Shown piece by piece: positions 9,870 to 57,744 of a DNA stretch of 64,000 nucleotides (within the stretch, counting starts at the first letter, position 1; every line of letters starts with the position of its first letter). The position numbers and the translations under genes were made by a program. Below the pieces are notes generated by a model. The model did no database searches, had not been told where the DNA came from, and saw only the letters and a program-made list of their open reading frames with translations. The stretch is from assembly GCA_964187785.1 (NCBI GenBank), contig OZ076409.1, positions 23,376,001 through 23,440,000 of the forward strand, in the 5' to 3' direction. This DNA is from Amphiscolops sp. MND2022 (lineage: Eukaryota).

Positions 9870-10347
9870 GGTGGGGTTGTTTCAGATCGAAATTTTGTGT
9901 GATCGAAACGCGAGATCGAAAAAAGATCAAAAATTTTGAGATCGAAATGTTCCGTTTTTGCTAGGTTTTTGCAAGTGCAAAGCGTTTTGAAGCGATTAAA
10001 TTCTTTTAGGTACTTTTCTCACCTAATTGGTGTCATTTACGGTGTATGCACTCTCGCCCTCACCATCGCAAAGATCAACTTCCACTCTTATCACTTCGCG
10101 ATCTCCGTTCCAGCTAGGTCTTTGCTCGTGTTCGACCTCGCTTAGCTAGATGGTAACATAAGCGGCCCCAAGAGGCCGGGCGACTAGAGGAAATGGGGCC
10201 ACATCCGAGGGCCAAAAATATTGGTATTTGAAATTGGTAGTTGTTTGAAATCATTAATTGGATCTCATTTTCTTCGACCATTTTACATCGATCACAGTGA
10301 CAGATTACATACTCGCGCAAAATGATTCGATCCAATTATCAACCGCC
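9870..10347. mobile_element. MITE with GG...CC ends and 8-bp TSD (Merlin-like)
   Basis: Ends GGTGGGGTTG / CAACCGCC, flanked by ACTACTAC on both sides (inside a TAC microsatellite, so the TSD is weaker evidence). Subterminal GATCGAAA arrays; carries the shared core module at ~10020-10210. Confidence 0.6.
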
Positions 10348-11072: not shown

Positions 11073-11272
11073 NNNNNNNNNNNNNNNNNNNNNNNNNNNN
11101 NNNNNNNNNNNNNNNNNNNNNNNNNNNNNNNNNNNNNNNNNNNNNNNNNNNNNNNNNNNNNNNNNNNNNNNNNNNNNNNNNNNNNNNNNNNNNNNNNNNN
11201 NNNNNNNNNNNNNNNNNNNNNNNNNNNNNNNNNNNNNNNNNNNNNNNNNNNNNNNNNNNNNNNNNNNNNNNN
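11073..11272. other. Assembly gap (200 N)
   Basis: Run of N. Confidence 1.
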
Positions 11273-14229: not shown

Positions 14230-14979
14230 TGTAACGACCGGCTAGTGACACACATCTAGGAAGAGGGATAATGCCTAGGATGCTGAAACAGGAGACCGTT
14301 GTCTTACTACATCCCTAGACACTAGTTTTTGATCCCAAAATGGTCTCCATTTGATCCCAAGATGTTTTTGATCCCAAGATGGTCTCCTTCTATCGTCTAA
14401 GGAGGCTTCTCTAATTAGAGCTCCGAAGCAGCGTGCCGGCACTCTCAAAGTCCGGACACGCTCCACAAGCCTGTAAAAACATTCCCTAATATTCCTAGCA
14501 CGTTCCTACGACTTCCCACATATTTCCGAGGTCAAAAAAGGTATCTATCTGAAACACATTTTCTTTGGAGAATTAGATCTCAAACGACCTAGAAGGTCAA
14601 ATATCTTCCAAATACAAAAGAAATACCAGTAAAGAAGTAGCGATAATGCACAGGGATAAGCCTCAATTACATTGCAGTTTGTCGTTGATCCTCAACATCT
14701 TCCCTCTGGCACTACTCCGTCTTTTCGTGTGCTCTTCCAGCGAGATGACACAACACTCCGCTCGTCTTGTTTCTCTTTGGCATTTCTCGATTTTTCTTCA
14801 CATTCTTGCTGTTTCTCAATATTCTTCCACGTGCTCTCTTCTTTGCTCTGTCTCCGCGTGGTTCCTTTTTTCGGTCAAGTTCTCGTACCTGCCAGGTCGC
14901 CATTTTTATTGTTCTATTTCGATACCGCACATTTCGAATTTTTCATCGAAATTTTGTCATGCCGATGGCTGACGTTACA
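14230..14979 (-). repeat. 3' LTR of giant Gypsy element
   Basis: TGTAACG...CGTTACA inverted termini; near-identical to 33089-33797 plus 34869-34872. Confidence 0.95.
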
Positions 14980-14986: not shown

Positions 14987-15663
14987 AGGCCGTAGTTTGT
15001 CGTCCTCGGCAAACGAGAGGATACTCTTACCCAGAAGGTAATTGCCATGGCAAGAAGTGGCTGAATATTTAGACAAGGTTCCATCGTTCTTTTTTTATTT
15101 TCTTTTGATTCTCTTACTTCTTTCTCATTATTTCCTTTCGCATTAGTGTTGGTATATTTTAGCAAACTCAAAGGTATTTGACAAAACCAAAAATACGACA
15201 GTTGATTTAAAAATCGATTTGCAGTTCTGATAATTTGGATTAAAATCATCTCTTTACTAAAAAGTGCTCCTGCACAGCTCGAGTAACAACAAGTGAATCT
15301 TGGTAGCAACATTGAATTACTAAGTTGGGGAAGGTGGGCACTGGCTCAGGGCCCACCAATGTAATTTGAATGAACTGAAATTTAGGCGAATACTCTTCAC
15401 GTATACTGAGTGTCGCTTCAAAATGTAATCTACGAAGCACCGAACTGAAATGAGCGGAATAGTCTGGATAATCCAGCAAAGCCGTTGAAGGTAAATATTG
15501 TTTTCGCACCTTTGTAAATTGTTAACATGTTTTTTCAGTTTTAGTCTTCACTTGATCAGCGTGAATAGTATCTTCATCCTTCATGCTGGTTTGATTGCAG
15601 GTCACGGATCGACGTCACAGCCGCTGGCTCTAAGTTTGCAGAGTGATCCGCCACCAAGGGAGG

Positions 15664-16227
15664 CTATTGGCCAGAATCGTCAATGGTCAATAAGTTGTTT
15701 AGTTCCGATTCAATGTCAGCCTCGTCCATTTGGGATATGCCCGTATCAGGTTCATCTTGGGCTGGGGTGGCCGCACCAGATAGGGTGAAATTGTCGTCCG
15801 TCATGGATTCGTCGGGAGGACCCACAGCAGTCGATAGGTTTTCCTGGTCTTCCTGCATCCGCGTTTCAGCCCTGTTTAGAGGTGGTACTTCAGGTGGTAA
15901 CTGTTGTGAACTGCCAGGGGCAGTCATACTTATTTGATGGTTTTCGCCGGTTATACTTCCCTGTGGGAGTTCGGGTAGGCTATCAGCCAAATCTGGGTGG
16001 CCATACTGCATAAATAAGTTTTTGAAGATTTGGATACGTCGCGCATAATCTTCGCCAACTGGTTGTCCTCGCTCTTTCTGTCGGCTATGCAGACTCAGGA
16101 ATAATTCCAGCGCAGCGCGCGGATTGCTAGGAACTTCCGTACTTACTGGTAGGGTCTTTCTGTTTGGTTCTCTGGCTACGGAGGATATCATGGCCTTTAC
16201 ACGTTGGCATAGCTGGTGGACTGCCAT
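15664..16227 (-). CDS. Accessory ORF of giant Gypsy, unknown function (187 aa, acidic low-complexity tail)
   Basis: Open, GC-richer frame in element sense orientation within an AT-rich 3' region. No recognised motif. Confidence 0.5.
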   Translation of the reverse strand: MAVHQLCQRVKAMISSVAREPNRKTLPVSTEVPSNPRAALELFLSLHSRQKERGQPVGEDYARRIQIFKNLFMQYGHPDLADSLPELPQGSITGENHQISMTAPGSSQQLPPEVPPLNRAETRMQEDQENLSTAVGPPDESMTDDNFTLSGAATPAQDEPDTGISQMDEADIESELNNLLTIDDSGQ

Positions 16228-17328
16228 GTCGATTAGTTATGGTTTTGACCAGCATGTCGTTGCGTCCAGGATGTGGGCGGGGTGTACACGGGGGTTCAAT
16301 CACCAAGTTGTATCCAGCTTCAAGCTACCGAGAAGTAATTAGACACAATTTGAAAGAGGCCCAATCCGATTATTTGATGTAGTCGTGAACATGATTCTGT
16401 ACTTTGGTAAACTTCAATGAAATTTATTTTCGTGTTCAAATTTTTGACTCAAATTTAAAATAGTTCTAATATTTCTTTTATATTCCTAGTTTAAATGTTT
16501 TTGAAAACTCAAAGAGTGACTCGAAGAGATAATAACAATTAGGATGGTTTAATTCGTTTTCCCGAACCTGTTTCATGTGGCCAAAATCGATGAGGTTTGA
16601 AAGTTCAAAGAGTGACTCGAATTCAATTTCCTTTTGCTTTTGTTGCTCCTGCTGGTTTCAGACAACTGGTTTGTAATAATTCATTGAAAGACTCGATTTC
16701 AATTGAAGTTTTTCCTTTGTTGCTCATGGATTAGAAATATTTAGTAATTCTTTGAAAGACTCGATGTCAATTCAATTTTGCTTTTGTTACTCACGGTTTA
16801 GAAACTTTTGACAAGTAACGAAGTAAAAAGCTAAAACGGAGGTGCTATTGGTTCAGAAAAAAATCTTTGCTGCAAAAAATTGAATTATTCATTCAAAAAA
16901 TCTAGTAAAAGTCTCAATTAAAAAATATTTTAGCACCTTAGAATCTAACTGGTTCAGAACAATTTAACCTGAGCAATCATTGTAAACCTTTATTATAATT
17001 TTAACAATGATTCTTCCGTTAATTTGATGAAAAAAAATTATCAACTGATCAATTAAATTCACTATTGTAACATTTGAATAAGAATTCGGGAAAATTTTCT
17101 AAGAATCCAGACAATTTCCAAGAATCGACAAAAACTTCAAGAATCGACAAAATTTCGAGAATCGACAAACTAATGTTAACACATTATCTCCATGTATTAA
17201 AATTAGTGTCTAGATTCTCGAATCTCTTTTTCTCGATTCTTGAAATTAGTGGAAATACATGCGCACTATTGTTTTCTCAATTCTTGACTTTTATAGGCGG
17301 CATAAACAATTTCTTTGAAGTTCAAATT

Positions 17329-20300
17329 TCAAGAATCGGGAAAAAACTCACTTCGCTGCGTTAAACTACCACTTTTCTTGATTCTTGAAAAATTGAACAT
17401 TTCCCACTTTGGCCTCGTAATGTTGGTTCGATCACAGTACATTCGCGATGTGTCACAAACGTATGGGTAGCGCAACCCGGTGGGTGTTTCGCCCCGCTTT
17501 CTGCCTCCCAGTCTTTGGATAATTCTGGCTAGGACTCTCAGGACTACCTCTGCGTTCCAGCCTGCAAAAGAGTCTGCGGAGCCTGTTTCTGGGTCTACGG
17601 GGATGCGTAGTCATGCGACTGGGTGGAATTCTATTGGCATTGGGAGCGCGCACAGTGCACGTGCTCGAATGATTGACGTGAAGTCGTACTCCACTCGCTT
17701 TTTGTCTTTGATGATCGTATAAGCCATGGGTGGTCGTAGAGATGCGAAATTCCTCACCACTGGTTGGTAAGTAGGACCCCGCTGGGATCCGTCCGAAGTT
17801 ACAAAGTGTAGAATGGATAAGGCAGGGGCACTTGCTGCCACTCGTAGGGCTTGTGTTGAATATCGCAATGCCATGACTGCACCGAAGATTGGCCAAATTA
17901 TGGGGGCGATGAGGGGTATCAGATCTTCTGTCTCTACTAGCACAAGAGTGGCAATCTGGGAGGGGAACAGGAAGCCTGGAATCTGGTTGGGTTCCTTGTT
18001 CACTGCAGGATTGTCATCCAGGGGATGCATGATTCCCGTGACGTTTACCCAGGTGGAGTAAATCCATGCGAGGAGGGCATCAATGTTGAGTTCTAATTGC
18101 TTCTTCATTTGTAGGGGACCCGCTGGGTCAAGGGGTGTAAGGTTGCATGTAGCCAGTTTTTCAGGTTCTGGACGTACACTAGGAAGCTGAAAAGGCACAA
18201 GCTTCCTTTGTCGAATATCAGTTTCTGTAGGAGGCCTGAAGGTCCTTTGTACACTGCGTGTAAACCGACCGCCATCATGTACGCTAAGATTTCGTACATT
18301 GTAGCTCTTTGCATTGCTTCCACATAAAAGCTTGTTTGTTGATCGTCTAAATTGTATTCTGCTTGCACGAAATTAGGAAGTCAGAATGGGGATATATTGT
18401 ATAAGAGTACCGGGAACAGGATTTCTAGCTGCTCTGCGACTTGATTTAATGTCTCGCGCAACGATTGGTGCCATGTTTGGTATGTGTGTCTGGGTTCTGT
18501 TTCATTCTGCTTGGCTAGATTTCGCGCCATCACTACTATCAATGTCAGAGTTGGCGATACTATTCCAGGATGTGCGTCCGTGGCTACTGCTGCCATTGGA
18601 AAAATTGTCGTGTTCGTTCGTTCTGCTTTGATCGCTTCTGTCACCCTGAATAGAGCTAGTAGCTCCTTATTGAATTTTGGGTCATGAGTTTTGTCATCCA
18701 GGGAGGATTTGTCCCTGCGTTCATACCATAAGTTATCCACAAGATGTTCGCGCTCTTGTTCATTGGGATAATATAGTTGGCGCACGCCCTGTTCATCTAA
18801 GGATCTGCATGACATTTGCATTCCATAGTCATAAGCAGTTGCTTCATCAACTAAGAGCTGCGAATTTCCTGCATACCCAGTGTATCCTTGTAAGGCTTTG
18901 GATACTTCTTCGGGGTAGGCAGGGTACGATGCCTCCCAGGGACGCCATGTCGTTGCGTTGATCCTGAGGTTTGACGCTACGATGTAGAAGTTTAAGTCCA
19001 TTGCATATGATGATTCTAGCGTCAGATACAAGAACTGCCGTATTGCTTTCGGAAGGTATATGTACCCAGGGGGTGACACAAACACGGTTCCCGTAGTGGA
19101 TTTTTTGTTTTTCATCATCGTTACGATGTTGGACATTGTCTCTGTATAGACAACGACTTCGTCCGTGAGGAATCCTTCAGTGAATCGGGTGTGTTGTGTA
19201 TCGAAGTATCTCAATGTACCTCGCAGGGTGAGGTGATCGATTACATTCGAGTCTACAAAGAATGGGGGGAAGTGGTATTGTTTCTGCCGCCGCTGGCGTG
19301 AATATTTTGTTGGTGACTTCGGCTTTTTCGCTGAGCGAGGTGCAGGGCATGTTCATTAACCTAACGTCCATCAGGGTATTTCTGGCGTTGTAGGAAGATT
19401 TGATGGTTGAGTCGACGAAGAAAGCAGATTTTGTTTTCTGCAGCAAGTCCTTTCCCATTGAAAGTAGCGTGATGGGGTCTCTTGCATAGTTCTTGGTTTG
19501 TAGACGGTCTTCGGCGAATCTGGCTAGTTGTTGACAAGTAAGTCGGTTCGTCGGTTGCAAAGGCTGGAGGTAGGTAGAGTTGTCTTTCTGCAGATCCCAT
19601 CGCAGGCGTTCGAACCATGGTGGGCATCCACTGGCTGTAAATATCGGTCGTTTAACGGGTCGAGTGCAGGGTACTCCGATAGTGGCTTTTTCTATGGTTC
19701 TTTGAGTTCCCTGATCTCCTTTGCTGATTGCACTTTCGAATTTTTGCCTTAGGGGGTTTTCTTTGTCAGTCGCGGCTGGTATTTCTCGTTGGAGACGCAC
19801 TGCGTCTCTTGCTGTTATGTCTAGTTGCCGCATTTCTGCTGCAGTAAGCCATTCTTTTGTTACTTTTTGTTTTCTGGCTTCTGGTTGGGTGGGGGAAGAA
19901 GCGGGGACTCCTCTATTCGCTTTTGAGCTTGATTGTTCGCCCTGTTCTCTAGCACGCTTCCCAGCGTTGAGTTTGTCTCGTAGATCTACAGGGGCGTTGG
20001 TGGTCTTGTTCTCCACCCGTTGCTGCTGTCGCTGGCGTTCTTTGAGCTTTGGATCTTTCTGGAAGCCTACTAGGCGGCTTGGCTCGTTTCTTGTGGTTCA
20101 CTTCTGGAGGAGGATGGCGTCAACTCATCGTATGAGTCCTGAAAAGTGACTGTTCTAGTCTGGCGATTTTCTCTTGTTTGTTCTTCATTCGTACTCGGGT
20201 TATTTGCAATTGCATTCACTTGTACCCCTCCCCCTGAAAGGTTGAAGGAAGCATGAAACTGGTTGAATGCTGTGTGAGTAAACGTACACCATTAGATGCT

Positions 20301-20850
20301 AAGGGCATGGGTGGGGTCAAAATCGGAGGAGGTACTATAGGCAGGGTGCAACTGAATCTTGGGGGTTTCATTTGTGGAGGAGGAGCCAGATTTTGTGGTT
20401 GCAGAAGCGGCAGTACCTGGATCGGTGGTTGCATGGTCGGTGGAGAAATTCGAAGCGACCGTTCTTGGTCCATGGAGGCCTAGTATGCTCTCCATAGATC
20501 ATGTGGGAGCGAGGGTCAATAAGGTCATGAGTTAGGACATAACCATGCCAAGTTCCATCACGGAAGGTAGCGGAACGCTCGAGAGGCACTATCCTACTAG
20601 TGATTGTCAAGAGGACGTCAGGATAAGCCGCTTGTGCCTGCATTTGAACGATGACAATGGCAAGGCCAGCGATCATTGTGGGGGTGGCCCCATTTTGTAG
20701 TGCATGTTGGACAAGGGCGAGCTGGTCGACTCGACCATTAACTTCGCCGATGGGTGAAGTGGTGCTGGTAGTATTGGAGTTGGGGGCACGCTGTCGAGGA
20801 TTTTGTTGATTAGTGGGTGCTGGCATGCGATTTCGCGAAGAAGAATCCAT
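17329..20850 (-). pseudogene. Large accessory ORF2 of giant Gypsy (~1170 codons) with central SGNH-like fold
   Basis: Consecutive same-strand ORF pieces (20368-21093, 20216-20473, 19177-20016, 18381-19214, 18105-18368, 17611-18198 and read-through to 17329) join through a few frameshifts and stops. No signal peptide or TM anchor seen. Confidence 0.7.
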
Positions 20851-23495: not shown

Positions 23496-24560
23496 TCAAG
23501 GGGCGGGCACGTGTTTCTTCAGTCTCTCATAATGAACTTTTTGACCAGTGTCAAGTACGTAAATGCGTCCATCTTGCAACACATCCGTTACTTTGTGGGG
23601 TCCGCGCCATGCGCGAACTAGTTTGCGGGTACTACCCTTGGGTATTATGTGGCAGAATACCCAAACAGCATCGCCTACAGCGTGCGCTTTCGCCTTGAGG
23701 TGGCGATTGAGTTTCAATTTCTGCCTTAGTTGAGCTTGATGGGTGTTTCTTCTGACCAATTCATGAATTTGTTGTTGCCTGGCTAGTAGATGTTCTACAA
23801 ACTCTTCTTTGGAGTCGAAGCCTCGCGCTGCGCATTCGGGGTTTATGAATGATAGAGGAATGGATTTCTCTGCGCCATGTTGGAGCATGTTCGGTGAAAA
23901 TCCTGTGGTGGCATGTCGGGTCGAGTTGTAGGCACCCAGGACTCCGTCGATATGTTCATCCCAGTCCTGCATTCTGCGTGACGTGTAGACTCGGAGCAAG
24001 GTAGGCAAAGTTCTGTTCTGTCGTTCAACTAGTCCATTACCTCTGGGGTGTGCTGGCGTGGACGTAACCTTGGTGACCTGTGATGCCTTCATGAGTTCTT
24101 GAGCTATTTCAGCTGTGAAGTTTGTGGCGTTGTCGGATTGCATCCTTGCTGGGGTGCCGTGCCTGGCAACCCACTTGTTGAGGATGATCTTAGCCGTGGT
24201 CTACGCGTCGTATTCATCATGGGCGCATAGGACAGCTTCTGCGAACTTGGTAAAATGGTCTATTATGACCAATAGTCCGGTGTTACCTGATTCAGTTTTG
24301 CAAAGCTTCAGGTGGTTGAACTGTACTAGATCATTGAAATTGCTACTGTTTATGATTCGCAAGGGGAAGCAGGGAATTCCTGCGGGGTGTTTTGCTTGCT
24401 GGCATGTCAAGCATTTTTAGATGTGATTCACTACATCTCTCTTGATGTCGGGCCAGGTGTATCGCTCCTGTATTCCCGCTAACACTTTTCCCACGCCTTG
24501 ATATCCTGACTAGCATGTGCCCGATAGAGGATTTCATGTTGGAATAGTTGTGACATGACT
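23496..24560 (-). pseudogene. Gypsy integrase
   Basis: HHCC zinc finger remnants (YRAH...YTWP...CLTC), LVIIDHFTKF, QSDN, LVERQNRTL, AYNSTRHATTG, and GPY/F-like WRGPHKV. Confidence 0.92.
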
Positions 24561-25003
24561 ATCATGCATGGGCGCACGTGCAGTGCGCGTTGTTGTGGGT
24601 CGTATTTGACGCTTAGTATGTCATCAGGGTTCAAAAAGAGTAAATCCTTCTTTTGGTTGTAGTATCGCTTGGCTAAGTCTTGCACTTCGTCTGGAATAAT
24701 TGGATCTTGCAAAGATTCATTCTTCATGAGCTTCTTCAGTGCCAAGAGATGCACATCTCTGTTTTGAGACAAGTGCAGGTCTTTAAGACCATATTTGGTC
24801 AAGTGATGATCGTGTAATTCCGTTCCGATGGTCCTCAGGACGTCCGCTTGCATTTGACATTCAATGGGCAATTCGCCTAAGGTTGGATCAGGCTCGAGGG
24901 TGTCTATTCGTGCGGGAGGCATCCTGGTAGTTATGCTCAAAATGCGGTTTGGTCTTTCGTCTTCTTCAAGAGTCGCTGTGGTCTCCCCTTGGATCTGAGG
25001 ATA

Positions 25004-26650
25004 TCAAGGAGTGTGTCCAGATGGCTCTTCGGGAATTTCGTTTCTCGGTTCTTTTCGAAGGATATACAGTAAGGGTAGCCGAGCTCGAGCTTCCGGAGGA
25101 AACTCCGGGTAGTCTGGAATGAGGCGACTGTGCTTGTCAAAGTACGGCACGGTAGGGAGATTGTCATAGTCTTCTTGCGACATGAAGTTGAATCCCTCAC
25201 TCACTTCTGGCAATTTTTCAAGGATTTGTTCGCGATGGACGTAATCATTGGTTCTTTTGCTGAGTCCATCAACGTTTCGATGCTGCGTGCGGGGTCGGTG
25301 AATTGTTTTGAAGTGATACTGGTCCAGGCGTGCGATCCAACGGCCAATCATGGCTTGGTCCATTGAGTAGGTTTTCAGCCACGAAAAGGCATGGTTGTCC
25401 ACGCGGAGCGTGAATTTTCGACCAGCTAGATATGAGTGGAACTTCTCGACGAAGTAAACAACTACGTACATTTCCAGTTTTAAGGCACCATATTTCAGTT
25501 GGGTTCTTGTTAGCGACTTGCTACTATAAACTATGGGTCTTAGGATGGTTTTGCCGTTGTATTCTTGTTCTTGGTGTAGAATACCAGCTATTGCAAATGT
25601 ACTGGCATCGGTATCTAGCGCAAATCGTCCTTGCTCGTTTGGTGCAGCCAAAGTAGTCGCGTCTGCGAGGGCTTGTTTTACCGAGTCAAAGGCTTCTTGG
25701 TGCCTCTCTTCCCATTGGAAGTGTTGGTTCTTTTTCAACAGCTCTTGCACAGGTTGTACTTTAGCGGCATGGAATGGGACGAAATCACGGTAGTAGTTGG
25801 CAAACCCTAGAAAACTTTGAAGTTCTTCTTTGTTCCCATGGGCAACCACTCCTGGATTTTGGCTACGGCTTCTGGATCCGGTTTGATTCCCTCGGCAGAC
25901 ACTACTTGTCCCAAGTACTTTGTTTCTGGACGCATGAAGTCGCATTTTTCTGCTCGCATTTTGAAACCTGCCTCTCTGAGACACTCGAACACTTCTTTGA
26001 TTCTCACGATGTGATCTTCGATCGTTTCCGTTGCGATTACTATGTCGTCAATATAGGCCATGACGACACTTCCATGTCTTTGCTGGATCTTTTATAGGGC
26101 TTTTGTGATGGATCGTTGGAATGTAGCGGATGCATTGCATAGCCCAAAGGGCATGCGTCGCGATTCGAATAAGTCAATTTGCAGGCGAATGCAGTTTTCC
26201 TTCTGTTGCGTTTTTTTTAGTGGTAACTGCCAGAAGGCCAATGCCAAGTCAATACTCGTGAAGATTTTCGCGTTGCCTATCCTGGATAGACTTTCGTCTA
26301 TTCTGGGTAGAGGGAAAGCATCCTTGACTGTTACGTCGTTTAGCGGTCGAAAGTCGCAACCGAAGCGAAGATCGCCTGTCTTTTTTTTCACCATGACTAT
26401 TCCACTAGCCCATGGCGAGTAGGAAAGTTGGATTAAGCCGAGGGCTAATAAGTTCCTCACTTCTTGATTGGCTTCAGCAGCCTTGTCTGGGGACATACGC
26501 CTCGCACCTTCCCTGTGGGAGATGGCTTCTGGTTCTAGTTCAATGCGATTTTCCGCTATTGTACATCTCCTTATGTCGGCCTTGTGCTTCTTGAAAAGGT
26601 CGTCGTACTCATTCAAAACTTCTTCTAGTTGATCCCTTGCACCCTCCCCC
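25004..26650 (-). pseudogene. Gypsy reverse transcriptase and RNase H
   Basis: SPWASGIVMVKKK, DFRPLN, FPLPRIDE, MPFGL, YIDD, YLG, FLGFANYYR; RNase H TDAS...LE...VDNH...HRNVDGLS. Confidence 0.96.
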
Positions 26651-27169
26651 CAAAACGAAAGGACGGATGAGATGTTTGGACTTGGTATTGGTTTCATTGG
26701 TTGAGGATCAGGTCTTTCACGTTTTTTCACTTTCCGATAGACCTTCTTCTGACATTTCAGTGGAAGATAAAACGTTTTGGGCAAAGGAACTAAATTCTGT
26801 ACTTTTGTCACTCAAATCAACAATATTAATGTCTTTAACATGTTCTACAAAAGGTACAGAAGTTTCGTCAGTTTGGTCGACCACGATTGGTCTAAACATA
26901 AAGGTTGTCAGCTCTGCCTTTCCGAGGACAGTCTTACTTTGGAGTATTAAGTTTTCGCTGGCTGTCCGGTTTCGCACGGCTAAGAATACCGTGCCGTCTT
27001 CTCCTACTGAAGTCATGTGTCTTCTGAAACAATTGGAGTTCGATTGTGCACCCCGCTGGGGTGTATCATTACGTTACGGAATAGGTATTCATTGGGGTTT
27101 TGGGTATTGACTTGGGCCCTAACTAATTTGCGTTCAAATGGACCTAGCACAATTTTTTTTGGTGGAAAC

Positions 27170-28050
27170 TACTGAAGAAGGTTCATGGCCACTAACCTTA
27201 TGGCCTGGTTTGAAATGGCGAGGAGCTTTGGGTCGCGGATGGTTACCCTCATTGCGGTTAGGTCTACGAGGACGTTGTACGTACGCAGAAAATTGCGAAC
27301 AAGTAGGAAATCCTCTGTTCCCAAGTGGTCTGCAATGACTATGAAATTCGTCTTGAGCGTGTGACCACCCAGTTGAAAGTTCACATTTTAGGCGATACCA
27401 ATGGTGTTTATGGTTTTGCCGTTGGCTGCATACAATTGGATGTCCTATGGCAACAGGCTCAAGTCTTGGGCGGATGCGATTTTTTGATATGCAGTGAGTG
27501 AGAGGATAGAGACCCCGGAACCGGTGTCTATCATGCCATACAAAGGGATGGGCTCTTGTAGGGTGTTGGCAAAGGCAACCACCAGTGATGCCTTTCGTCT
27601 ATTCGAGCTTCCACCTGTGCGTCTTGCACACCAATATTGTAGCATCGCAACTCTTGGCGGCCTAAGTATAATCCCTGTGGGAAACGTCCTTCTAGGACTA
27701 CTATTGCGTCAAGTTTCATATCAACGCCATTTATGTTGATAGCGACTGCAACCGGAGATATTGTTTTTACCTTTTGGATGGGCGCAAGTTTAGTTTCATC
27801 TTCTCTGGCGAAGTGCGGTAGCGGTCGAGCGGCGATTATGTATTTAACATTTCTGCACAGTTCTTCTTTCAGTTGAGATAGCGTCAGTTCGGGACGCGAC
27901 TTTTGTTCGGCCGAAAGAAGCAAATGTACGGAAATGAGGGTTTCGGTGCAATTCCATGCAGGTGCTTCTAACGTGGTGAGCACCTGTTTCTCGCCACAAG
28001 TGTCGATAATGGGGCGTGAGGGGCCTCCGGCCTCTGCGACAGAAATCACC
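27170..28050 (-). pseudogene. Aspartic protease (with an upstream degenerate protease-like domain)
   Basis: IDTGSGVSIL and FLLVRNFL, preceded by a retropepsin-like segment ending LYLGRQEL that has no DTG. Confidence 0.8.
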
Positions 28051-28149
28051 TGGACTTGGTGGTCCTGAGTTACGCTATCGAACTGGTTGGTTTGGGGGGC
28101 ATACCATGCCGCTCTAACTTGTTCTTCTTGTCTAGGGTGTTCAGGGGTC

Positions 28150-30814
28150 ATACATTCTGATGCCGAATGTTCGGTGCAGCCACAATTGATGCAAAAGGCG
28201 AGGGTACCCTGGATTGGTAGTGATGCTGGGTAGATCTCAATTTTCATTCCGTGTGGCTGTGATGGACAAGTCCATCCTCCGGTTGGGTTCGTATGGCAGG
28301 AGTTCACTTGCTGTTGCACTGGCTCTCGTGCACGATCTTCCAGCGGGCAGTCTATCACAAAATGTGATGGGTCGCCACAATTTAAACATGCTCTTTGAGG
28401 TGGTTGTCTATAGGGTGCCGGTTGTTTAGGTTGGGGTTGTTGAGCATGTTGTGCTGGTGGGGGAATTGCCGGAGGCAATTTCGGTTGTGGGTTGGGTTGG
28501 GTTTTGGAGCTTGTTGTTGCTTTGGAGGGGCCATCTGGTAATTGTCCGGGCGAGATGAACCACGCATACGCAGATATTGTTGGACAGTGAAGCGGAGCGC
28601 TTTCACCGTTGGAGGTGCCTCTACGTATTGTTCTGGAGCGTACATGAGAGCGAGATTTCGTTTGTTCTTTGAGAGCTCAAAGTTGCGTACTCCCTCTTTG
28701 AACCTTCGCATGATTTCATATCGTCGAACGGTTACTTCTTCTTTGGCGTAACCCTGGATACGTAAACCTTCAAGGGCAACTAGGTATTGCATATAATCTT
28801 CTTCATTGTTTTGGTTGCGGGTTCGAAATTGTTGTTGGATGTGGATCTTGCTTGATCCAGTTCCAAAACGACGTGCCAATGTCGCGAAGACTTTATCGTC
28901 AGTGTCTCTTTCTGCCCCGGACTTGTTGGTGATATAATCTCTTGCTTCGTGTTCTAAGTACTCGATTATTGTCCAGGCTTTGTCAAGGGGGAAGGCTCTG
29001 GCGTGCGTTTTCTCTAGATGGCGTTCCATTAACATCATTCATCCGTCAGCATTGCCGTCTTTCGTTCCTCGATACTCTGTGGGCTTGTTTTTTGATTCTT
29101 TGGCCGCTAGTAGCGGTTCCAGGCCCTTCGACATGGCGGTCGATATGGCTTCTACCTGCGCTTGTCGTTGGCTGGTTCTTGGGGTGTCGGGTATTGCGTT
29201 CGAAGCTTCGAGAGTTTCCTCCGTTTCCCCGTGATCTTGTTCTAAATTTCGTTTGATCGTGAGTTTTCGTTGCGTGCTCGTGGCCTTTGGCCGCGGGACG
29301 ATTTCATATACGTTTGTTTGGGCGGGTTTTGACGCTTGCACTGGTTCGAGCAGTGTAGTAATTTGACTCTCTTGTGGCCATTCCGCTCGCATGTGAATAG
29401 TAGTCTCCCGTGTTCGATGCACCATGGGCGAAAGGATCAAATGAGACACTAGTTATTGGGTCTGTACCAACATCGCGTGACTCGGTTTGGATTACTCTCG
29501 CCATCTTGTTGGTTTTTGGTAGGTCGCTTTTGTATGTTGCAGGCGGTATTAGTTTCAAAAGCTTGACTTGTTGCACACTGGGTTGTGCAACTTTCCGATA
29601 GGTGGCTTGTGTTGGTAATGGAGCTGCACTGGTAGAAGGCAAATCGTTTAGGTGTGGTATCATAGGCGCCACTGGCGCTGCTTTTGCTTGTGCAGGTGCT
29701 GTTTGAGACGCCATGGCTCTCACTCCTAACGTCAAGTCTTTCATTGCAGTCATTATGTCTGTCATGCGGGTGTTTGCATCGGTTTCTTTGCGCTGCATTA
29801 GATCGAACATTAGCCTCATAAGTTCGTCGGCTTGACGATCTCTTTCTTTCCTCACGGCTGACACTTCAGCCATGCGAGTGTCGGCCATGTTTTCTCGCTG
29901 CTTGATTAGATCGTTCAGGGAGGCCATGCATGCTTCGAGTCTTCCTTGGTTTTGGCGTCCTTTTGCTTGTATTTCCAGGATACCCTTTCTCTCATTTTAT
30001 CCATATCTCTCATGATGACTTCGGCTCGCATTGCGTGTTCGCTATTTTCCCGAGCCAATCGTGGGTGCACTTGTGAGAGTTGAGCTAAATTACCTCGAAA
30101 ATCTTCTCTGGCCGCCTGCGATTCTTTTCTGATCTTAGTTGAATCTGGGGCCGTTTCCACGCTTGCTCTGGAGTTAGGCGTGTAAGTTAATCGCTCGGTA
30201 TTTCCTTGGCCAGAGCTCAGGTTTCTTGACGGAGGCGTTCTGAAGACATACCGCAGTGGGTTATATTCCATTTGGGTTGATAGGTTTCCGTTCGGTTTGT
30301 TTGGTGCCTTAGATGTTTCTCCTGGTTGTGTGTATCCGCTAGAAAAGGATTTCGGACTGCGCTATTGGTTAGCGTATGAGAACCCGATGGGTCCCTATGA
30401 ATCGATGGGGTGCGGGGAGCCGCCACCGGAGTTGCGATGTCGCTGTCTTGCGATGCGGCTTCTTCGGTGGTGCTTACTTCGCACAATGGTTTTTTGTTTG
30501 AGTTTGGCCATCCCTCTAAACTATAGTCGGTGACTTCTAGAGGGGGCCACGCATTATTTTGCGTGGTATTTTCAGCACCATCCACTGGAATAGTACTGTC
30601 GGGAAAGCTTGCGACGAACTTGGCTGCTCGGTAGCAGCTGTCATTTCCACATTTTGTTCCGAATTGGAGACATAGCCAGACATGAGTTCTGAAAATATAT
30701 CTACAATGGTGGATTCGAGTAGTTTTTGGTGAGAGTGTCCCACTTGATCACGTTTTCTGTTGCGCTGCCGAATGGATTTGTAGCATGGAAATTTCTGAGT
30801 TCATTCCTGTCCAT
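28150..30814 (-). pseudogene. Long Gag with two CCHC zinc knuckles
   Basis: CLNCGDPSHFVIDC and CINCGCTEHSASEC; capsid-like region LARRFG...QQQFRTRNQ...YLVALEGL; long coiled-coil/low-complexity N-terminus. Start ATG (30814) inferred. Confidence 0.85.
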
Positions 30815-33088: not shown

Positions 33089-34872
33089 TGTAAGGACCGG
33101 CTAGCGACGCACAGCTAGGAAGAGGGATAATGCCTTAAACAGGAGACCGTTGTCTTACTACATCGCTAGACACTAGTTTTTGATCCCAAAATGGTCTCCA
33201 AGGGTGACTTTTCTATCGTCTAAGGAGGCTTCTCTAATTAGAGCTCCGAAGCAGCGTGCCGGCACTCTCAAAGTCCGGACACGCTCCACAAGCCTGTAAA
33301 AACATTCCCTAATATTCCTAGCACGTTCCTACGACTTCCCACATATTTCCGAGGTCAAAAAAGGTATCTATCTGAAACACATTTTCTTTGGAGAATTAGA
33401 TCTCAAACGACCTAGAAGGTCAAATATCTTCCAAATACACAGAAATACCAGTAAAGAAGTAGCGATAATGCACAGGGATAAGCCTCAATTACATTGCAGT
33501 TTGTCGTTGATCCTCAACATCTTCCCTCTGGCACTACTCCGTCTTTTCGTGTGCTCTTCCAGCGAGATGACACAACACTCCGCTCGTCTTGTTTCTCTTT
33601 GGCATTTCTCGATTTTTCTTCACATTCTTGCTTTTTCTCAATATTCTTCCACGTGCTCTCTTCTTTGCTCTGTCTCCGCGTGGTTTCTTTTTTCGTTCAA
33701 GTTCTCGTACCTGCCAGGTCGCCATTTTTATTGTGCTATTTCGATACCGCACATTTCTAATTTTTCAACGAAATTTTGTCATGCCGGTGGCTGACGTGGT
33801 AAATAGTCAATTGGCTTAATGCCATTTGGCTTAAAGTCATTTGGCTTAATACAATTGGTCACTTGTCCTAATTTTTTAAAGCTAAGTGTCTCGGGTATTG
33901 GTCACTTGGCTTAAAGTCATTTGACTTAAAACCACTTAGTTTAAAACACGTGGCAGATTTTGTCGAATTTATCTTTATAACGTAGTCAGCGTATTATTAT
34001 AACATGCCATTTCAAGTACCCCTCGGATATGTCCCCATTTCCTCTAGTGCCTCGCGGCCCCTTGGGGCCGCTCATATTCCCATCTTGCTAAGCGAGGTCG
34101 AACAGGAGCAAAAACCTAGTGGGAACGGAGATCGCGAAGCGATCGTAGTGGGAGTTGGTCTTTGCGACGGTGAGGGCGAGCGTAGTGTACGCCTTTGTTC
34201 TAATTGCTTGGGTCTAATGGATTTAGATCTAACTGTTAGGTCTAACTTTAAGATCTAATTTTATCTAAAATACTTAGGTCTAACCCCTTTATGATCTAAT
34301 ATGTGTTCTGAAAGCGAAAATATAATGTGGGGCATATGCGATGTATGCACGCTCGCCCTCACTGTCGCAAAGACCAGCTCCCACGATGATCGCTTCGCGA
34401 CCTCCGTTCCCGCTAGGTCTTCGCTCCTGTTCGACCTCGCTTAGCAAGATGGGATTATAAGCGGCCCCAAGGGGCCGCGGGGGACTAGAGGAAATGGGGA
34501 CATATCCGAGGCACAATTTATACTTTATATCACTTTTTAGTTTTTGATCCTAATTGACCTATTTTTTCTCCGAAATTAGATCAAATTAGAAGAGATTTTT
34601 AGACCTGATTATTTAGATCAATTTATTCAGATCTCAGTTTTGCCCCCTCTCTTAGATCTATTTCATTAGACCTGATTCCACGTAGTCAGGGCGAGCGTGC
34701 ATACACCGCATATGCCCACAATTGATATTTACGTGAGTTGACTTTTTCATTCCGTGAGTTGGAATGGAGTTGGCTTAATTTTGTGGTCACTTGGCTGAAA
34801 ATTTTTAAGCCAAATGACAAAAAAATTAAGCCAAATGGTATTAAGCCAAGTGACGTAACCGCTGACGTTACA
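33089..34872 (-). repeat. 5' LTR of giant Gypsy, interrupted near its outer end by a MITE
   Basis: TGTAAGGACCGGCTAG at 33089. The LTR runs to GCTGACGT (33797) and resumes as GCTGACGTTACA at 34861-34872. Confidence 0.93.
33798..34860. mobile_element. MITE/non-autonomous DNA transposon, GG...CC ends, 8-bp TSD GCTGACGT (Merlin-like)
   Basis: TIRs GGTAAATAGTCAATTGGCTTAATGCCATTTGGCTTAA and rc GGTTACGTCACTTGGCTTAATACCATTTGGCTTAA; TTGGCTTAA arrays; inverted pair of core modules at 34021-34183 and 34349-34511. Confidence 0.9.
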
Positions 34873-35073
34873 TATCTTGCTAAGCGAGGTCGAACAGGAG
34901 CAAAGACCTGGCTGGATTGAAGTTCGCAAAGCGATCGTAGTGTGAGGTGACTTGTGCGACTGTGAGGGCGAGTGTGCATATACCGTAAATGACCCCACGT
35001 TTTTCCTTAGACGTCATCTTCATTCATTTTAGACCTTAGTTACAGTGCATGCTTTTAAATGCTTGGTCAAAAT

Positions 35074-51460: not shown

Positions 51461-51838
51461 CCAACAACCTTACGATAAGTTGGCAAAACATAGCCCACTT
51501 TCTCATTTGGAATTAGAAGTTCGGGCACAGTAATCAATGCTGAGAAACGTTTAGTCTAAAAAGTTCAAATTCAATAACTAAAATTTGTTGTTGAGTTTTA
51601 TTTTAATTTAATTTAATATTCCATGATTTGACGCATGAACACTTTTATAAATACTGATGAAAACTTTTCATGATTATTGAATGACTTTTAGCGCGAAATA
51701 CTTTGACTCATTGTTTTTCTTGAAATCTTTGATATTAGTCACTTTGATCAAAAAGAGATTAATTCCGTCCAAGAATTTTTGCTATCAAGCTATAGCGTAA
51801 ACAAAGAGCAACTGCCAGTGCAGCAGAATTCTACATTT

Positions 51839-51859
51839 TGGTGACCCTCTCGACGTGAT
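51839..51859 (+). promoter_or_regulatory. PBS, tRNA-Trp type with 3-nt insertion
   Basis: TGGTGACCC-TCT-CGACGTGAT versus the tRNA-Trp complement TGGTGACCCCGACGTGAT. Confidence 0.8.
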
Positions 51860-51888
51860 ATTGGTTAGATCGTTCCTAATTCTTTCAT

Positions 51889-52494
51889 ATGGTACGAAAA
51901 AGTATTTACCTGAAGAACAGCTCAAAGTTTTTGATTCTGTCAGATTCACTTCTGAAAATGTTCAAAACAATTTCATTTGACGTTTTGTCTGTACCTGGAG
52001 CTCGCCCTCAAGATCTTTGGGATTTTCTACCACCCTTCAATAGGTTTGAGAAGATCATATTATTTGTGGGGGGTAACGCTTTAGAGAATTTTCAATCAAA
52101 AAACGGCACTTTTCGATCAGCTCAAGAACCAATTGAAGTTGCAACAGAAATATTTGAACTAGCTCGAGCACTTCTTTTGCGCACCTTAACAGTTTTCATT
52201 GTTGGAGTACCACCTCGAGGTACTGAAGAATTACAGCATAAAGTTTTGCAACTGAACGCTGAGCTTAACGCTTTTTGCAACTCACAGAAGCAACCCATAG
52301 TTTTTGTTGGCATCTCGCATTACCTTTACGACTTGAAGCATATATCCAAAGATCTCTGTCACTTTGAAAAAGGAGCTTTCGCAAAAATTCACAAATTACT
52401 TAACGAAAAGATATTGAGAAAGAAATTCCAAAAACCTTGTCACTGCAAAACAGTTCATACTTTTTGGAAGGAGTATACTACATATCCTTTCTAA
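51889..52494 (+). CDS. SGNH/GDSL esterase-fold protein, stand-alone ORF inside the BEL element upstream of gag
   Basis: Block I LILSDSL, block II VPGAR, block III LFVGGN, VFIVGVPPR, block V DLCH; C-terminal CHCxxxH. Confidence 0.8.
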   Translation: MVRKSIYLKNSSKFLILSDSLLKMFKTISFDVLSVPGARPQDLWDFLPPFNRFEKIILFVGGNALENFQSKNGTFRSAQEPIEVATEIFELARALLLRTLTVFIVGVPPRGTEELQHKVLQLNAELNAFCNSQKQPIVFVGISHYLYDLKHISKDLCHFEKGAFAKIHKLLNEKILRKKFQKPCHCKTVHTFWKEYTTYPF

Positions 52495-52677
52495 CCAGAT
52501 ATTCCCTCATTTGTCTTCCACTAATTTAAGTGTCCTGCCTGCAAGGGGCTGTGCTCACTTAAATTCAATCGCCTTTTTTGTCGTTCCTTTTCGTTGACCT
52601 GCCTGCAAGGGGCTGTGCTCAATCGGAAAAACGATAATAGCTTCCTCCTCATTTGAATAACATAGAACAGGACTACA

Positions 52678-55600
52678 ATGTCCGATGAAACACGAAGACT
52701 CCTAGCCTCTCGAAAGGCTCATATGGGCGTTGTTACTCGAAAGGGCAACGAGTTCGACAAAATTAAAACGAAGCCCATTGAAGAAATTACAGCGGATGAT
52801 AGATTACTAGCAGAAACGCTTTTAGAATCACTGACTGAAAAAATAGCTAAAATTGGAGAAATCAATCTTAAAGTTCTGGATGCTACTGAAACTTCTGACG
52901 AGGCCTTAGAAACGGAAATTTTCAAACAAGATGAAATTGAAACTGAGGTAAAATCGTTGATGAAAAGCATCCAAAAGTGGATTACAGAACATACATCTGA
53001 TGTTGACGAAACATCATCCCTTGGCTCAAACCACCGTGACAATGTTCGTCTTCCTCGAATTGAACTTCCCTCCTTTGATGGTCAGTATAAAGATTGGAAA
53101 ACATTCTTTGATATGTTTAAAGGAACTGTGCACGAACAGCAATCTTTACCCAAAGTACAAAAGCTTTACTATCTCAAAGGTGCTTTGAAAGGAGACGCTA
53201 AACGTGTTCTTTCTCATTTGCCTACAACTGAAGCAAATTATGATGCAGCCATTCAACTCTTGAAAGATCGATATGATAATGAGTTTCTGATCACGAAAGC
53301 GCATTTAAATAACATTTTCAAAATTGATTCGATGAAGAAAGACAGTGCAGACAGCTTGAGGAAACTCATTGGTATTTTTAATGAGAATGAGATGGCTCTT
53401 AGTGCCTTGGGAATTGACACAAAAAGTTGTGACTTCGTTTGGGTGCATATACTCTCCGAAAAACTGGATTCTGAAACTGCTCGTGAGTGGCAGTTGAGTA
53501 ATGCTGATGGAAAATTGCAATCAATGGAGCAATTGAGAAAGTTTCTCGAACGTCGTGCTCGTGCATTAGAGGCATCTGGCCGATCTTTAGAAACCACTCG
53601 TGAGTTGACGCGAGAAAAAAGGGCTGAAAGAGAAACCTGTCAAAGTTATCAGTCCAATTCAATGTCTTGTCCTGTGTGTAAAAAGGCACATCGGATATAC
53701 GCCTGTCCAGCTTTCTTGTCTTTATCACTTAATGAAAGACATCAAAGGATTAAAGAACTTAGACTTTGCTTCAACTGTCTGAAAGAAGGTCATAGTATCA
53801 AGAGTTGTTCCTCGAAAAAGTTATGCCAAACCTGTAACAAAAAACACAACACATTGTTACATCGGGTTGATACTGCCTCAGTTCACTTTACTGAAAATGC
53901 CCATACCACAAATGACGATCCTCAATTTACAGGACATCAGCAGGAGTCAAGTTACACGACAGTTCTTCCTACTGCTATTGTTTCTGTAATTGATTCACAA
54001 AATAAACTTGTACAATGCCGGGCTTTATTGGATAGTGGCTCGCAACTTAGCTTTATCACTGAAAAATTGGCTGATGCATTGAATCTAAACAAAGATGATG
54101 TAAACTTGAACCTGAGTGGTATCGGCGGCAAGGCAAAAGATGTTAAAGCTGGTCGTGTCAAACTTGTTTTGAAATCTGGATCGAAACAAGTCAATGTGTC
54201 TGCATACATTTTGAAACAACTAACAAATTGCATACCGAGTAAACTTCTGAACGTTCCTACAACACCTACGAATATCTCTTTGGCTGATCCCAATTTCAAT
54301 GTCTCCAAACCAGTGGACATGATATTAGGTGCGGATGTCTTCGAAAAATTGATGGAAAATCAACGCCGGGAAATTTCTCCTGGTTTGTTTTTACGTAAAA
54401 CGATTTTTGGATGGGTGTTGATTGGAAAACAGAACGAATCAACAAATTCTTTCATCTCTTGTCATGCCTCCATTGACGAAACTTTGAGAAAGTTTTGGGA
54501 AGTTGAGACTCTACCTCAAAGAAAGTTGCCAACTGAAGAAGAATTGCTATGTGAGAAAATCTTTCAAGAAACCACAAGGGTTGTCGACAATCGTTTCGTA
54601 GTCAAGTTGCCTTTCAAAAAAGATGCGATTTTAGGTGAAAGCTTAACTCAAGCTCAACGCAGATTCAGTTCATTGGAACGTCGGTTGGACACTAATCCCG
54701 AATTGAGAAAACGGTATGGTGATTTTGTTGATGAATTTGTTTCACTTGACCACATGGAAGTCGTTCCTGAAAATGAAATCAACAAACCTGATAGTGATGT
54801 TTACTATCTACCTCATCATTGTGTCTTCAAAGAAGACTCAACAACAACGAAGTTACGTGTAGTCTTCGATGGTTCTGCGAAGACTTCGAATGGACTTTCA
54901 CTGAACGAAAGTCTCATGGTTGGACCAGTCGTTCAGAATGATCTGTTTACTATTCTGAATCAATTCCGTTGCAAGCCTATAGCGCTATCAGCGGACATTG
55001 CCAAAATGTACCGTCAAGTCGAACTAGATGCACCTGACAAAGACTTTCATCGTCTTCTGTGGCGCAGCAAAAAAGATGAAAAAGTGAAACATATGCGAAT
55101 GAAGCGAGTTACCTACGGAATTGCTTCTGCTTTCCACTCCACTCGCTGCCTAAAGGAAGTTGCTAATCGGACAAATAACCATACAGTCGCTGACGCACTC
55201 AATAATTCATTTTACGTTGATGACTTTCTCGGTGGTGCTAACACCATCACAGAAGCGCGTAATTTGATGAAAGACTTATGTACTGAGCTTTCCGCCTTCG
55301 GGTTTGAGCTCAGAAAGTGGACTTCAAGTCACCCGGAATTAACAATGGAGCTACCCCTTGAACTCCGAGAAACATCAGATGAACTTGCGCTTTTTTCAGA
55401 AGAATACAAAATAAAAGCACTTGGCATCTGTTGGAAACCCAACACTGACGAGTTTGCGTTTTCAATAGACTTATTTCCTGTCGAACAGCTGACAAAAAGA
55501 ACGCTTCTCGCCGACTCTTCAAAAGTTTTTGACCCTATTGGCTGGATCGCACCAGTCATTATCGCCTTCAAGTGCCTTATCCAACAAACATGGATTGAAG

Positions 55601-57744
55601 GACTTTCATGGGACGAGAAACTACCGGTTCATATTGCAAATGATTGGATGGAACTACGCACAGGTTTAGATAAACTTAACGAATTTCGGATTCCTCGCTG
55701 TGTTGTCCCGAGTCAAATGCATACAAAACAACTTCACGTTTTCTGCGATGCATCGGAGAAGGCCTATGCAGCAGTTGTGTATTTACGCACAGAAGATGCA
55801 GACCAAATTATCCGAGTATCGCTTCTGACTGCCAAAACTAGAGTATCACCTGTAAAACAATTATCAATGCCGCGGTTAGAACTTTGCGCCGCGCAACTTG
55901 GTGCAACATTACTGAATACCATGAGGCATATACTTGATATACACGATGTTTTCGCTTGGAGTGACAGCACCATCGTTCTCAATTGGCTCTCAAAGCTACC
56001 TCGAACTTGGAATACCTTCGTTGCAAATCGAGTAGCAAATATTCAAGAGATTCTGCCTCGAAATCATTGGGGTCATGTACCGACCGAGGATAACCCTGCA
56101 GATATTGCTTCGCGAGGTGCAACAGCTTCCCAACTATTTGAGAACAAACTTTGGTGGACAGGGCCGAATTGGCTAGAAAGTAATACAACACATTGGCCTC
56201 ATTATAGGCCCACTAATGAAGAAAATCAAGAGAAACGAGAACCAAAAAGCGTTCTCACTCTCACTATTACTCCTCATTTCATGGACGTGGATCGTTTTTC
56301 TAAATTGAAAACATTAGTTCGAGTTTTTGCATTCATACAAAGATTCATCAACATTCTGAAAAAGGATCGCAGCAATTTCGGAACACCTCTAACAGCTACT
56401 GATTTATCTAACGCCAACTTTCGAATGATTTCCTTTGAACAAAAGAGATATTTCTCTGAAGAATTCAATTTGTTGAAAAACCAAGAAGAGCTTCCAAAAT
56501 CTTCGAACATGCGGAATTTGACACCTTTTTATGATGCCGAGTTTGATGTTCTGCGAGTATGAGGTCGAATGGGCAATTCTAACTTCAACGAGTTGAAGAA
56601 GTTTCCACTGCTTATCCCAAAAGGCTCACCTCTTGTTCCTCTCATAATTAGACACTTCCATGAAGAGACTCTTCATGGTGGGGGCCTTTTGACAAATGCT
56701 GCTATCAGAGAGCAGTACTGGATCATTGGTGCTAAACCGCAAATCAATAAAGTAATAAAAAATTGTGTCAAATGCTGTCGTTACTCTTTGAAACCACCGT
56801 TCCAGCTAATGGCTGATCTACCAGCCGAACGAGTCACACAGGCCAGACCCTTCTCTCAATGTGGTCTCGATTTTGCTGGACCAATAATGACTAAATTACC
56901 TGATTCTGCATGTCAAAAAAGATATGTCGCTTTGTTTGTGTGCTTTATAACTAAAGCTATACATCTTGAATTAGTCTCAAATTTGACGAAAGAAGCCTGT
57001 ATTCTTGCATTGAAACGATTTTCGGCTAGGCGCGGTACACCAACAAAACTTTTTAGTGACAATGGATCCAATTTCATTGGAGCTAGAAATGACTTAATCA
57101 AACTTCAAGAAATCCTCTCAAGCAAGGAAGAGAATTCTTTGTTTGTGTATGCTAATCAAAAAGGTTCTCAGTGGATAACTATTCCCAGCAGATCTCCACA
57201 TTTCGGTGGCTTATGGGAAGCGGGTGTGAAAAGCATGAAGCGACACTTACGCCGGATTGTTGGTCAGCAGAAATTAAGCAATGAAGAATTATTGACAGTT
57301 CTGACACTGATTGAAGCCATTTTGAATTCCAGACCATTAACTCCCCTCTCCAATGACCCTAATGACTTAGCACCGCTGACTCCTGCACATTTTTTAATTG
57401 GTAGTTCTTTCAATCCCGTACCAACATCCAATCTTCAGTTGCCGCTGAACACTAGATTTCGTCTTATACAACAAATTCAGAAGGACTTCTGGGATGCTTG
57501 GAAACGAGACTATCTTGTAACTTTACAAGTACGGAAAAAATGGTTCACTAACGGGCCAGAAATTAATCGTGACGATTTGGTCCTGATAGCTGATGATGAC
57601 CTCAAACCGCTCCAATGGAAAACTGGTCGTGTAGTGGAACTTTACTCCGGAAACGACGATATTACAAGAGTTGTTAAGCTGAAAACTTCCACCGGAGAAA
57701 TGATTAGACCAGTTATAAAACTGAGAAAACTTCCAATTGAATAA
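52678..57744 (+). CDS. BEL/Pao Gag-Pol polyprotein with one in-frame nonsense codon (56560-56562)
   Basis: LPRIELPSFDG Gag; three Cys/His knuckles; LLDSGS protease; RT YLPHH, KLRVVFD, ADIAKMY, YVDD; RNase H FCDAS, PRLEL, WSDS, NPAD; integrase LDFAGP, SDNGSNF, WEAGVK. LRV*GRM corresponds to the usual LRVGGRL. Confidence 0.96.

Follow-up and report, generated by a model that had tools for sequence, protein, structure and literature searches.

What does a Gypsy element do with a second long reading frame whose middle reads like an SGNH hydrolase without its histidine, and is this segment a counterpart of the SGNH ORF in a BEL/Pao element nearby? Both elements lie in a 64,000-nucleotide stretch of Amphiscolops sp. 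MND2022 DNA (the window). A preliminary description proposed that the Gypsy segment is an inactive SGNH-like domain comparable to the RNA-binding OSK domain of Oskar, and that the two superfamilies recruited SGNH folds in parallel, to a shared host-specific benefit. We examined the ORF, its relatives, its predicted fold and its resemblance to the BEL protein, and weighed what the domain may do.

A Gypsy and a BEL/Pao element in the window

The Gypsy element covers 19.5 kb of the minus strand and is contained in the window from LTR to LTR:

33089..33797, minus strand: 5′ LTR, identical to the other LTR at 694 of 709 aligned bases (97.9%), with a diverged outer end
23499..29996, minus strand: gag-pol in several broken frames, with RT, RNase H and integrase
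15580..20850, minus strand: second long ORF (ORF2), which reads in the direction of pol and lies after integrase and before the 3′ LTR, mapped with intact relatives
14230..14979, minus strand: 3′ LTR, with TG...CA ends

The LTR pair and the order gag, RT, RNase H, integrase are those of a Gypsy LTR retrotransposon. Pfam matches in pol were to RVT_1 (E = 5e-11), RT_RNaseH_2 (E = 8e-27) and rve_3 (E = 7e-5), and the gag region gave PNMA and zinc-knuckle matches, both weak. A further ORF piece (21355-22272, minus strand) lies between integrase and ORF2. By eye, we take its last third to resemble a degenerate macro domain of the Poa1p/TARG1 type; searches of Pfam, PDB and PHROGs lent this likeness no support.

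The BEL/Pao element is on the opposite strand:

51589..58035, plus strand: whole element, whose LTRs are identical and which is flanked by a target duplication of 5 bases
51889..52494, plus strand: stand-alone SGNH ORF of 201 aa upstream of gag-pol, basic, with Ser, Gly, Asn, Asp and His present
52666-57744, plus strand: gag-pol, with a single stop codon within

Its SGNH ORF sits between the 5′ LTR and gag, and the identical LTRs mark the element as very recent. Elsewhere in the window, satellite arrays occupy positions 1 to ~6000 (periods of 52, 94, and 146 bases, with a strong strand skew) and 47941-51402 (about 14 copies of a 218-base unit, ending beside the BEL LTR). Long, MITE-like pairs of inverted repeats lie at 60324-61273 (227 bases) and 34021-35460 (~200 bases), with dispersed partial copies of such repeats at 10024-10178 and 43169-43252. 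An assembly gap of 200 N is present at 11073-11272.

The split segment is the middle domain of ORF2

ORF2 is a frame of ~1,360 aa, and its intact relatives are 1,277-1,429 aa long. The window copy carries several frameshifts, stops, and one insertion and would yield no intact protein. The features that concern us are:

19270..19482, minus strand: piece 1 of the SGNH-like domain, with the Ser of block I retained in V-D-S-T and with a block II that has its Pro but another residue for Gly
19255..19271, minus strand: frameshift splitting the domain, where relatives switch frame yet are continuous
18870..19259, minus strand: piece 2 of the domain, with block III (N-V-I-D-H), an S-P-P-G loop, the last strand, block V and the final helix
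16294..17421, no strand assigned: A+T-rich insertion of ~1.1 kb (31% G+C) that interrupts ORF2; residues 1133 and 1134 of the relative P0011 map to 17422 and 16293

The insertion holds internal direct and inverted repeats and has no second copy within the window. The six motifs that the preliminary description had read on either side of one frameshift are all where it placed them, between 19425 and 18915 on the minus strand. Frame 1 encodes AFFVDSTIK (19425-19399) and NMPCTSLSE (19353-19327); frame 2 encodes VDSNVIDHL (19256-19230), TVFVSPPGY (19088-19062), LNFYIV (18995-18978), and TTWRPWEASYPAY (18953-18915). Block V of the window domain is W-R-P, with neither Asp nor His.

Two intact relatives, P0011 and P0017, align with both sides of the frameshift and continue across it without interruption. 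Using the second piece of the domain as query, we recovered 27 long relatives with 55-77% identity. With a profile, we searched 1.84 billion representatives and obtained 139 matches at E ≤ 0.001, down to ~22-30% identity, of which at least one (P0136) was rejected as a false match by its Pfam domains. Since relatives are continuous across the break, and since the searches recovered the 27 long proteins and the 139 representatives, the two pieces belong to one real domain. The split segment is thus the middle domain of the long second ORF. No relatives were found in JGI metagenome contigs, IMG/VR, or phage records. One cluster member, the acoel worm protein P0294, has no SGNH-type domain and by eye is a piece of a LINE-type endonuclease.

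ORF2 itself gave no Pfam match. In a crude Kyte-Doolittle scan for an env-like signature, we saw no N-terminal hydrophobic segment and no clear C-terminal anchor; in four intact ORF2s, mild hydrophobicity (Kyte-Doolittle 1.6-2.1) was confined to one or two internal stretches, and the more distant P0192, described below, has none. The most conserved part of ORF2 is residues 901-1000, which are 53% identical to the distant P0188, compared to ~30% for the SGNH-like domain. This part, within a region examined as P0011 residues 800-1100 (window 17422-18132, minus strand), contains one hydrophobic segment and constitutes an uncharacterised domain. It had no match in Pfam, and the window piece had none in PHROGs.

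Related Gypsy ORFs carry complete and degenerate domains in tandem

A weak match, P0172 (E = 4e-5), pointed to P0192, which contains a Pfam-detectable SGNH domain at ~306-478 (Lipase_GDSL_2, E = 1.2e-7) and, at ~776-962, a domain matching that of the window. We refer to the complete domain as D1 and the degenerate one as D2. A search with the degenerate region of P0192 returned 87 proteins. With P0192 included, 65 of these 88 hold both domains, 4 hold only D1, 18 hold only D2, and one holds neither. D1 has the full set of SGNH residues (Ser 63/64, Gly 64/64, Asn 63/65, Asp 65/67, and His 65/67). D2 keeps the Ser (77/78) and a block III of the form G-x-N-D-H, whose four specified residues are present in 79, 76, 81, and 81 of 81 proteins; in one subfamily, P-G-A is also present at the expected place and spacing. 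At the position of the block V His, D2 has Arg (42/77) or Tyr (35/77) and never His (0/77). The residue that follows the block III Asp is His in all 81 D2 domains and Val or Ile in 62 of 65 D1 domains. The net charge of D2 is slightly acidic, at -3.

Comparison of the window family with D2 shows homology across 180 columns (99.4%, E = 2.6e-21, with none of 40 shuffles as good), and the two types of ORF2 are homologous for ~370 residues from the domain onward. As the homology with D2 fixes the register, N-V-I-D-H in the window corresponds to G-x-N-D-H, and the oxyanion Asn has been replaced in the window family. This register does not agree with the earlier pairing of block III in the Gypsy and BEL proteins: N-V-I-D falls on G-x-N-D, and the Asn on which that pairing relied sits at the Gly position.

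In gene calls, D2-side sequence is joined with an integrase that has 50% identity to that of the window Gypsy element, or with a piece of RT, which suggests that the tandem ORFs belong to a related Gypsy lineage. D1 was present in none of 23 long window-family proteins, one of which is the false match P0136. An origin of D2 by duplication of D1 is unproven, as the two have no profile similarity. P0236 (1647 aa) contains one complete SGNH domain and two identical-scoring degenerate copies (846-977 and 1190-1321), which read as a recent internal duplication. The succession of a complete SGNH domain and a degenerate one within related Gypsy ORFs is new here.

The catalytic histidine is missing throughout the family

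We examined conservation in a local alignment of 167 rows, which is redundant and takes in four rows of the D2 type as well as at least one false match. In block I, the window family keeps Asp (64/71), Ser (65/71), and Thr (65/71). The block II Gly of the oxyanion hole is kept in only 3 of 96 rows, most of which have Cys or Leu after a conserved Pro. Block III has the form Asn-x-hydrophobic-Asp-His (Asp 85/99, His 82/97), and the oxyanion Asn is found in 5 of 99 rows, four of them D2-type. At the block V His position, 63 of 80 rows have Arg and 2 have His. Among 38 rows under 80% identity, Asp, Ser, and Thr of block I are each present in 20/22, Asp82 in 35/38, His83 in 33/38, and Arg180 in 22/25. 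Ser25, Asp82-His83, and Arg180, all at former active-site positions, are among the most conserved columns, and Arg18 is conserved as well. Of the features of an active hydrolase, the family has the block I Ser and is without the block II Gly, the block III Asn, and the block V Asp-x-x-His. Given our block assignment, the catalytic His is indeed missing from the Gypsy domain, as had been proposed.

A tree of the 38 rows contains many deep subfamilies; it was made from match columns only, with long-branch warnings and a midpoint root, and does not give the direction of gain or loss. Because Arg occupies the His position across many deep subfamilies, the loss of the His is old and family-wide. 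We considered decay of a single copy and rejected it, since the absence is common to the whole tree. High-copy families, with clusters of 118-342 member sequences, have retained the degenerate domain. In 25 near-full rows, the net charge, a crude proxy for the surface, has a median of +2 and ranges from -3 to +8.

The Gypsy domain is likely to have an SGNH fold

We folded the domain of an unaltered relative (P0004, residues 109-312) with a 15-row alignment. The model is poor (pLDDT 39, pTM 0.36). Its elements are ordered strand-helix-strand-helix-helix-strand-helix-strand-helix, which is the SGNH order. The best structural Z against 48,161 chains was 6.5 (3rjt, rmsd 4.8, 153 aligned), and a second structural search gave Z up to 7.2, both under the tool's caution level of 8. 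Twenty of the top 30 VIA neighbours are titled esterase, GDSL, SGNH, acetylhydrolase, or O-acetyltransferase, two are GTPases, and the other eight we take to be mostly SGNH. Among these eight, 6PFX and 3PT5 are counted as SGNH in a table of PMC10792757. With Foldseek, the best rows were CE2 and CE3 esterases (E = 0.014-0.046), and no row reached E ≤ 0.001. GTPase and SDR folds were also present among the structural neighbours, and neither OSK (5A4A) nor ZfL2-1 (4C1B) was among the best 50 rows listed for this poor model. In the ESM Atlas, the nearest cluster is SGNH-named (0.88), which we treat as a lead only; a D2 domain had no usable match there. In BFVD, no match reached E ≤ 0.001; the weak rows include several SGNH proteins from phages.

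Profile comparisons of sequence were uniformly blank. Neither the window pieces nor 46 relatives in the Gypsy family nor the 18 members of A4 had an SGNH match in Pfam, and PDB sequence searches with three profiles gave none either. NCBIfam and PHROGs held nothing useful for the family, and with hhalign neither the window family nor D2 matched D1 or the BEL ORF. A designed PPR protein and P-Rex1, both returned by PDB sequence searches, were rejected as repeat or chance matches. The proposed SGNH-like fold of the Gypsy segment is therefore favoured by the predicted structure and its neighbours and not by any sequence-profile comparison with SGNH sets. On balance we regard an SGNH fold as likely, though not firm.

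The BEL ORF is a firmer SGNH case and does not match the Gypsy domain

The BEL ORF has 18 relatives, in which Ser (16/16), Gly (17/17), Asn (17/18), Asp (15/15), and His (14/16) are conserved. Its block motifs lie at 51937-52380, and the median net charge of the family is +10. The model has a pLDDT of 66, with Foldseek matches to SGNH esterases at E = 8e-4, a further match to 4C1B (E = 0.0098), and a structural Z of 8.3 (rmsd 4.2, 136 aligned). Compared to D1, a canonical SGNH set, the profile match was 52.9%, and none of 40 and none of 60 shuffles scored as well. The model and these residues point to an SGNH fold with an intact triad that is likely active, a firmer case than that of the Gypsy domain.

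The block-by-block parallel drawn earlier between the Gypsy and BEL proteins is apparent to the eye but has no statistical backing. BLASTP gave E values of 2.8 and 0.32. The HMM-HMM comparison of the Gypsy domain with the 51889-52494 protein, which the preliminary description had put forward as a check, returned probabilities of 0.6% and 0.3%. As many as 25 of 40 shuffles in local and 59 of 60 in global alignment scored as well as the real pair. From the proposal of parallel recruitment, what survives is that both proteins are predicted SGNH folds, the BEL one more firmly; a detectable parallel between them does not. As there is no detectable similarity and the domains occupy different places in their elements, it is plausible that Gypsy and BEL acquired them separately. 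The two domains also differ in position, size, charge (+2 versus +10), and catalytic status, and thus give no support for one shared function. The suggested host-specific benefit fares no better, since SGNH cargo has been reported in several retroelement classes across phyla.

A possible ligand-holding role for the degenerate domain

The reading we prefer, and put forward tentatively, is that the Gypsy domain is a non-catalytic pocket for a lipid or other anionic ester that helps dock the element's particles on membranes. Keeping the Ser and lacking the catalytic Asp-His, the domain would not hydrolyse esters; to go by the SGNH mechanism (PMC10792757), hydrolysis is unlikely because there is no block V base and because the window family is also without the oxyanion Gly and Asn. 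The former active site (Ser25, Asp82-His83, and Arg180) may hold the ligand, as the conserved Ser, the Arg at the His site, and the gained His together suggest a pocket for something anionic. The retention of the degenerate domain in high-copy families and many deep subfamilies suggests that binding rather than catalysis is under selection. Docking on membranes would follow the analogy of the ZfL2-1 esterase, which binds anionic phospholipids and liposomes and not oligo-A RNA, and whose active-site mutants still bind liposomes; positive surface charge drives its membrane binding (PMC3905857). The window family, by contrast, has a charge close to neutral (+2), and that of D2 is slightly acidic (-3), which weighs against simple electrostatic membrane binding and RNA binding alike.

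Other roles would account for parts of the same evidence. The domain could be a protein-interaction or structural scaffold that packs on the conserved helical region that comes next in ORF2, self-associates, or contacts a host protein, with no small ligand. We consider this unlikely, as it does not explain two pocket residues, the conserved Arg and the His that was gained. In its favour, conservation runs past the domain into residues 901-1000, which exceed it in conservation, the two ORF2 types remain homologous for ~370 residues from the domain on, and the block I Asp-Ser and block III Asp have a structural part in the fold (PMC10792757, on the Asx motif). Somewhat less probable is a serine hydrolase or acyltransferase that is still active after rewiring, its lost block V base replaced by the His that follows block III Asp or by the Asp-His of a partner chain. 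Two-chain chimeric triads have been described for AlinE4 and ZfL2-1 (PMC10792757, section 2.2). Such an enzyme would explain why the Ser is kept in 65/71 window-family and 77/78 D2 domains, why D2 keeps the oxyanion Asn, and why His follows the block III Asp in 81/81 D2 and 82/97 window-family domains when D1 has Val or Ile (62/65). Against it, the window family has lost the oxyanion Asn (5/99) and mostly the block II Gly (3/96), and a complete partner domain is absent from all 23 long proteins of the family. In SGNH geometry, moreover, the residue following this Asp of block III forms part of the acyl pocket wall and is not at the base site. Slightly more doubtful again is a new SGNH active site, in which the block V Asp-His has been discarded and either the His after block III serves the Ser or the tandem D1 completes the half-site. 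If true, ORF2, placed where env would be, would handle lipids with two modules and could take over from an envelope in movement between cells.

An Oskar-like module that binds RNA and packages or localises the element's RNA, the analogy of the preliminary description, is improbable. OSK, which is recovered together with RNA on purification, has an SGNH fold lacking the triad (PMC8662646, PMC10792757), and the conserved Arg18 and Arg180 would suit such a role. However, the Gypsy family keeps the Ser that OSK lacks, its charge is near neutral (or acidic in D2), its conservation is centred on the pocket, and the element already has a gag with zinc-knuckle-like motifs, to judge from the weak Pfam match. 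The retroelement esterase that has been assayed, ZfL2-1, bound lipids and failed to bind oligo-A RNA (PMC3905857). The least probable reading, by a little, is that the domain does not derive from SGNH at all and has another three-layer alpha/beta fold, its motifs being like SGNH blocks by chance and the poor model having drifted to a common fold. The blank profile tests against SGNH sets, the Z scores under 8, and the GTPase and SDR folds in the lists would all agree with this. It has to contend with SGNH proteins being strongly enriched among the best rows of the structural comparisons, with the ESM Atlas features, and with D2, in which G-x-N-D, the Ser, and the P-G-A of one subfamily stand at the expected places and spacings. 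We retain the ligand-holding pocket as our preferred, if tentative, reading.

Comparison with known SGNH-bearing elements

SGNH cargo in retroelements, dead copies included, is already known. SGNH ORFs occur in the Vesta LTR elements of bdelloid rotifers, in Athena/Penelope-like elements, and in CR1, L2, and RTEX LINEs; Athena-L elements hold GDSL derivatives that lack catalytic residues, and such domains are shared across retroelement classes (PMC5408684). Ngaro-like YR retrotransposons carry an additional SGNH ORF (PMC9210276). In the literature we searched, which stands apart from repeat databases such as Repbase and Dfam, from supplements, and from subscription journals, we found, going by titles and the openings of abstracts, no description of the Gypsy ORF2 family, of an active-plus-degenerate tandem, or of an SGNH ORF in BEL elements. 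Why retroelements keep gaining SGNH esterases is left open by both PMC5408684 and PMC3905857. The ORF2s with a complete and a degenerate domain, those with a degenerate domain only, and the BEL element with a complete one form a natural test set.

Vesta ORF3 resembles Gypsy ORF2, with its predicted SGNH domain, in being an additional frame with SGNH cargo in an LTR element of the retrovirus-like kind. Vesta ORF3s are short and keep all catalytic residues, whereas the Gypsy domain lies in the middle of an ORF of ~1,360 aa and has Arg at the His position (PMC5408684). The Gypsy relatives with complete and degenerate domains in tandem are set apart from Vesta ORF3 by its published description rather than by sequence. 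The Ngaro SGNH ORF is likewise an additional ORF after the core genes, of unproven function, but it belongs to a different retroelement order and, unlike the Gypsy domain, can be recognised by a standard domain search (PMC9210276).

ZfL2-1 (PDB 4C1B) also carries its SGNH domain on a retroelement, and is the one retroelement SGNH domain known to have been tested (PMC3905857). Weak catalysis and membrane binding independent of the active site are its own features. In contrast to the Gypsy domain, it is catalytically complete, has a basic surface, and occupies a gag-like position in a LINE ORF1p (PMC3905857). Among the 30 SGNH structures surveyed in PMC10792757, Oskar alone is described as without a triad. 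OSK (PDB 5A4A) has the SGNH fold that is predicted for the Gypsy domain and shares with it the absence of the block V His and the replacement of the oxyanion Asn; OSK, the product of a host gene, has Asp in place of Ser and a basic RNA-binding surface, whereas the Gypsy family keeps Asp-Ser-Thr and is near neutral (PMC10792757, PMC8662646). The Gypsy family would add to the SGNH variants a class that retains the Ser and has lost the His.
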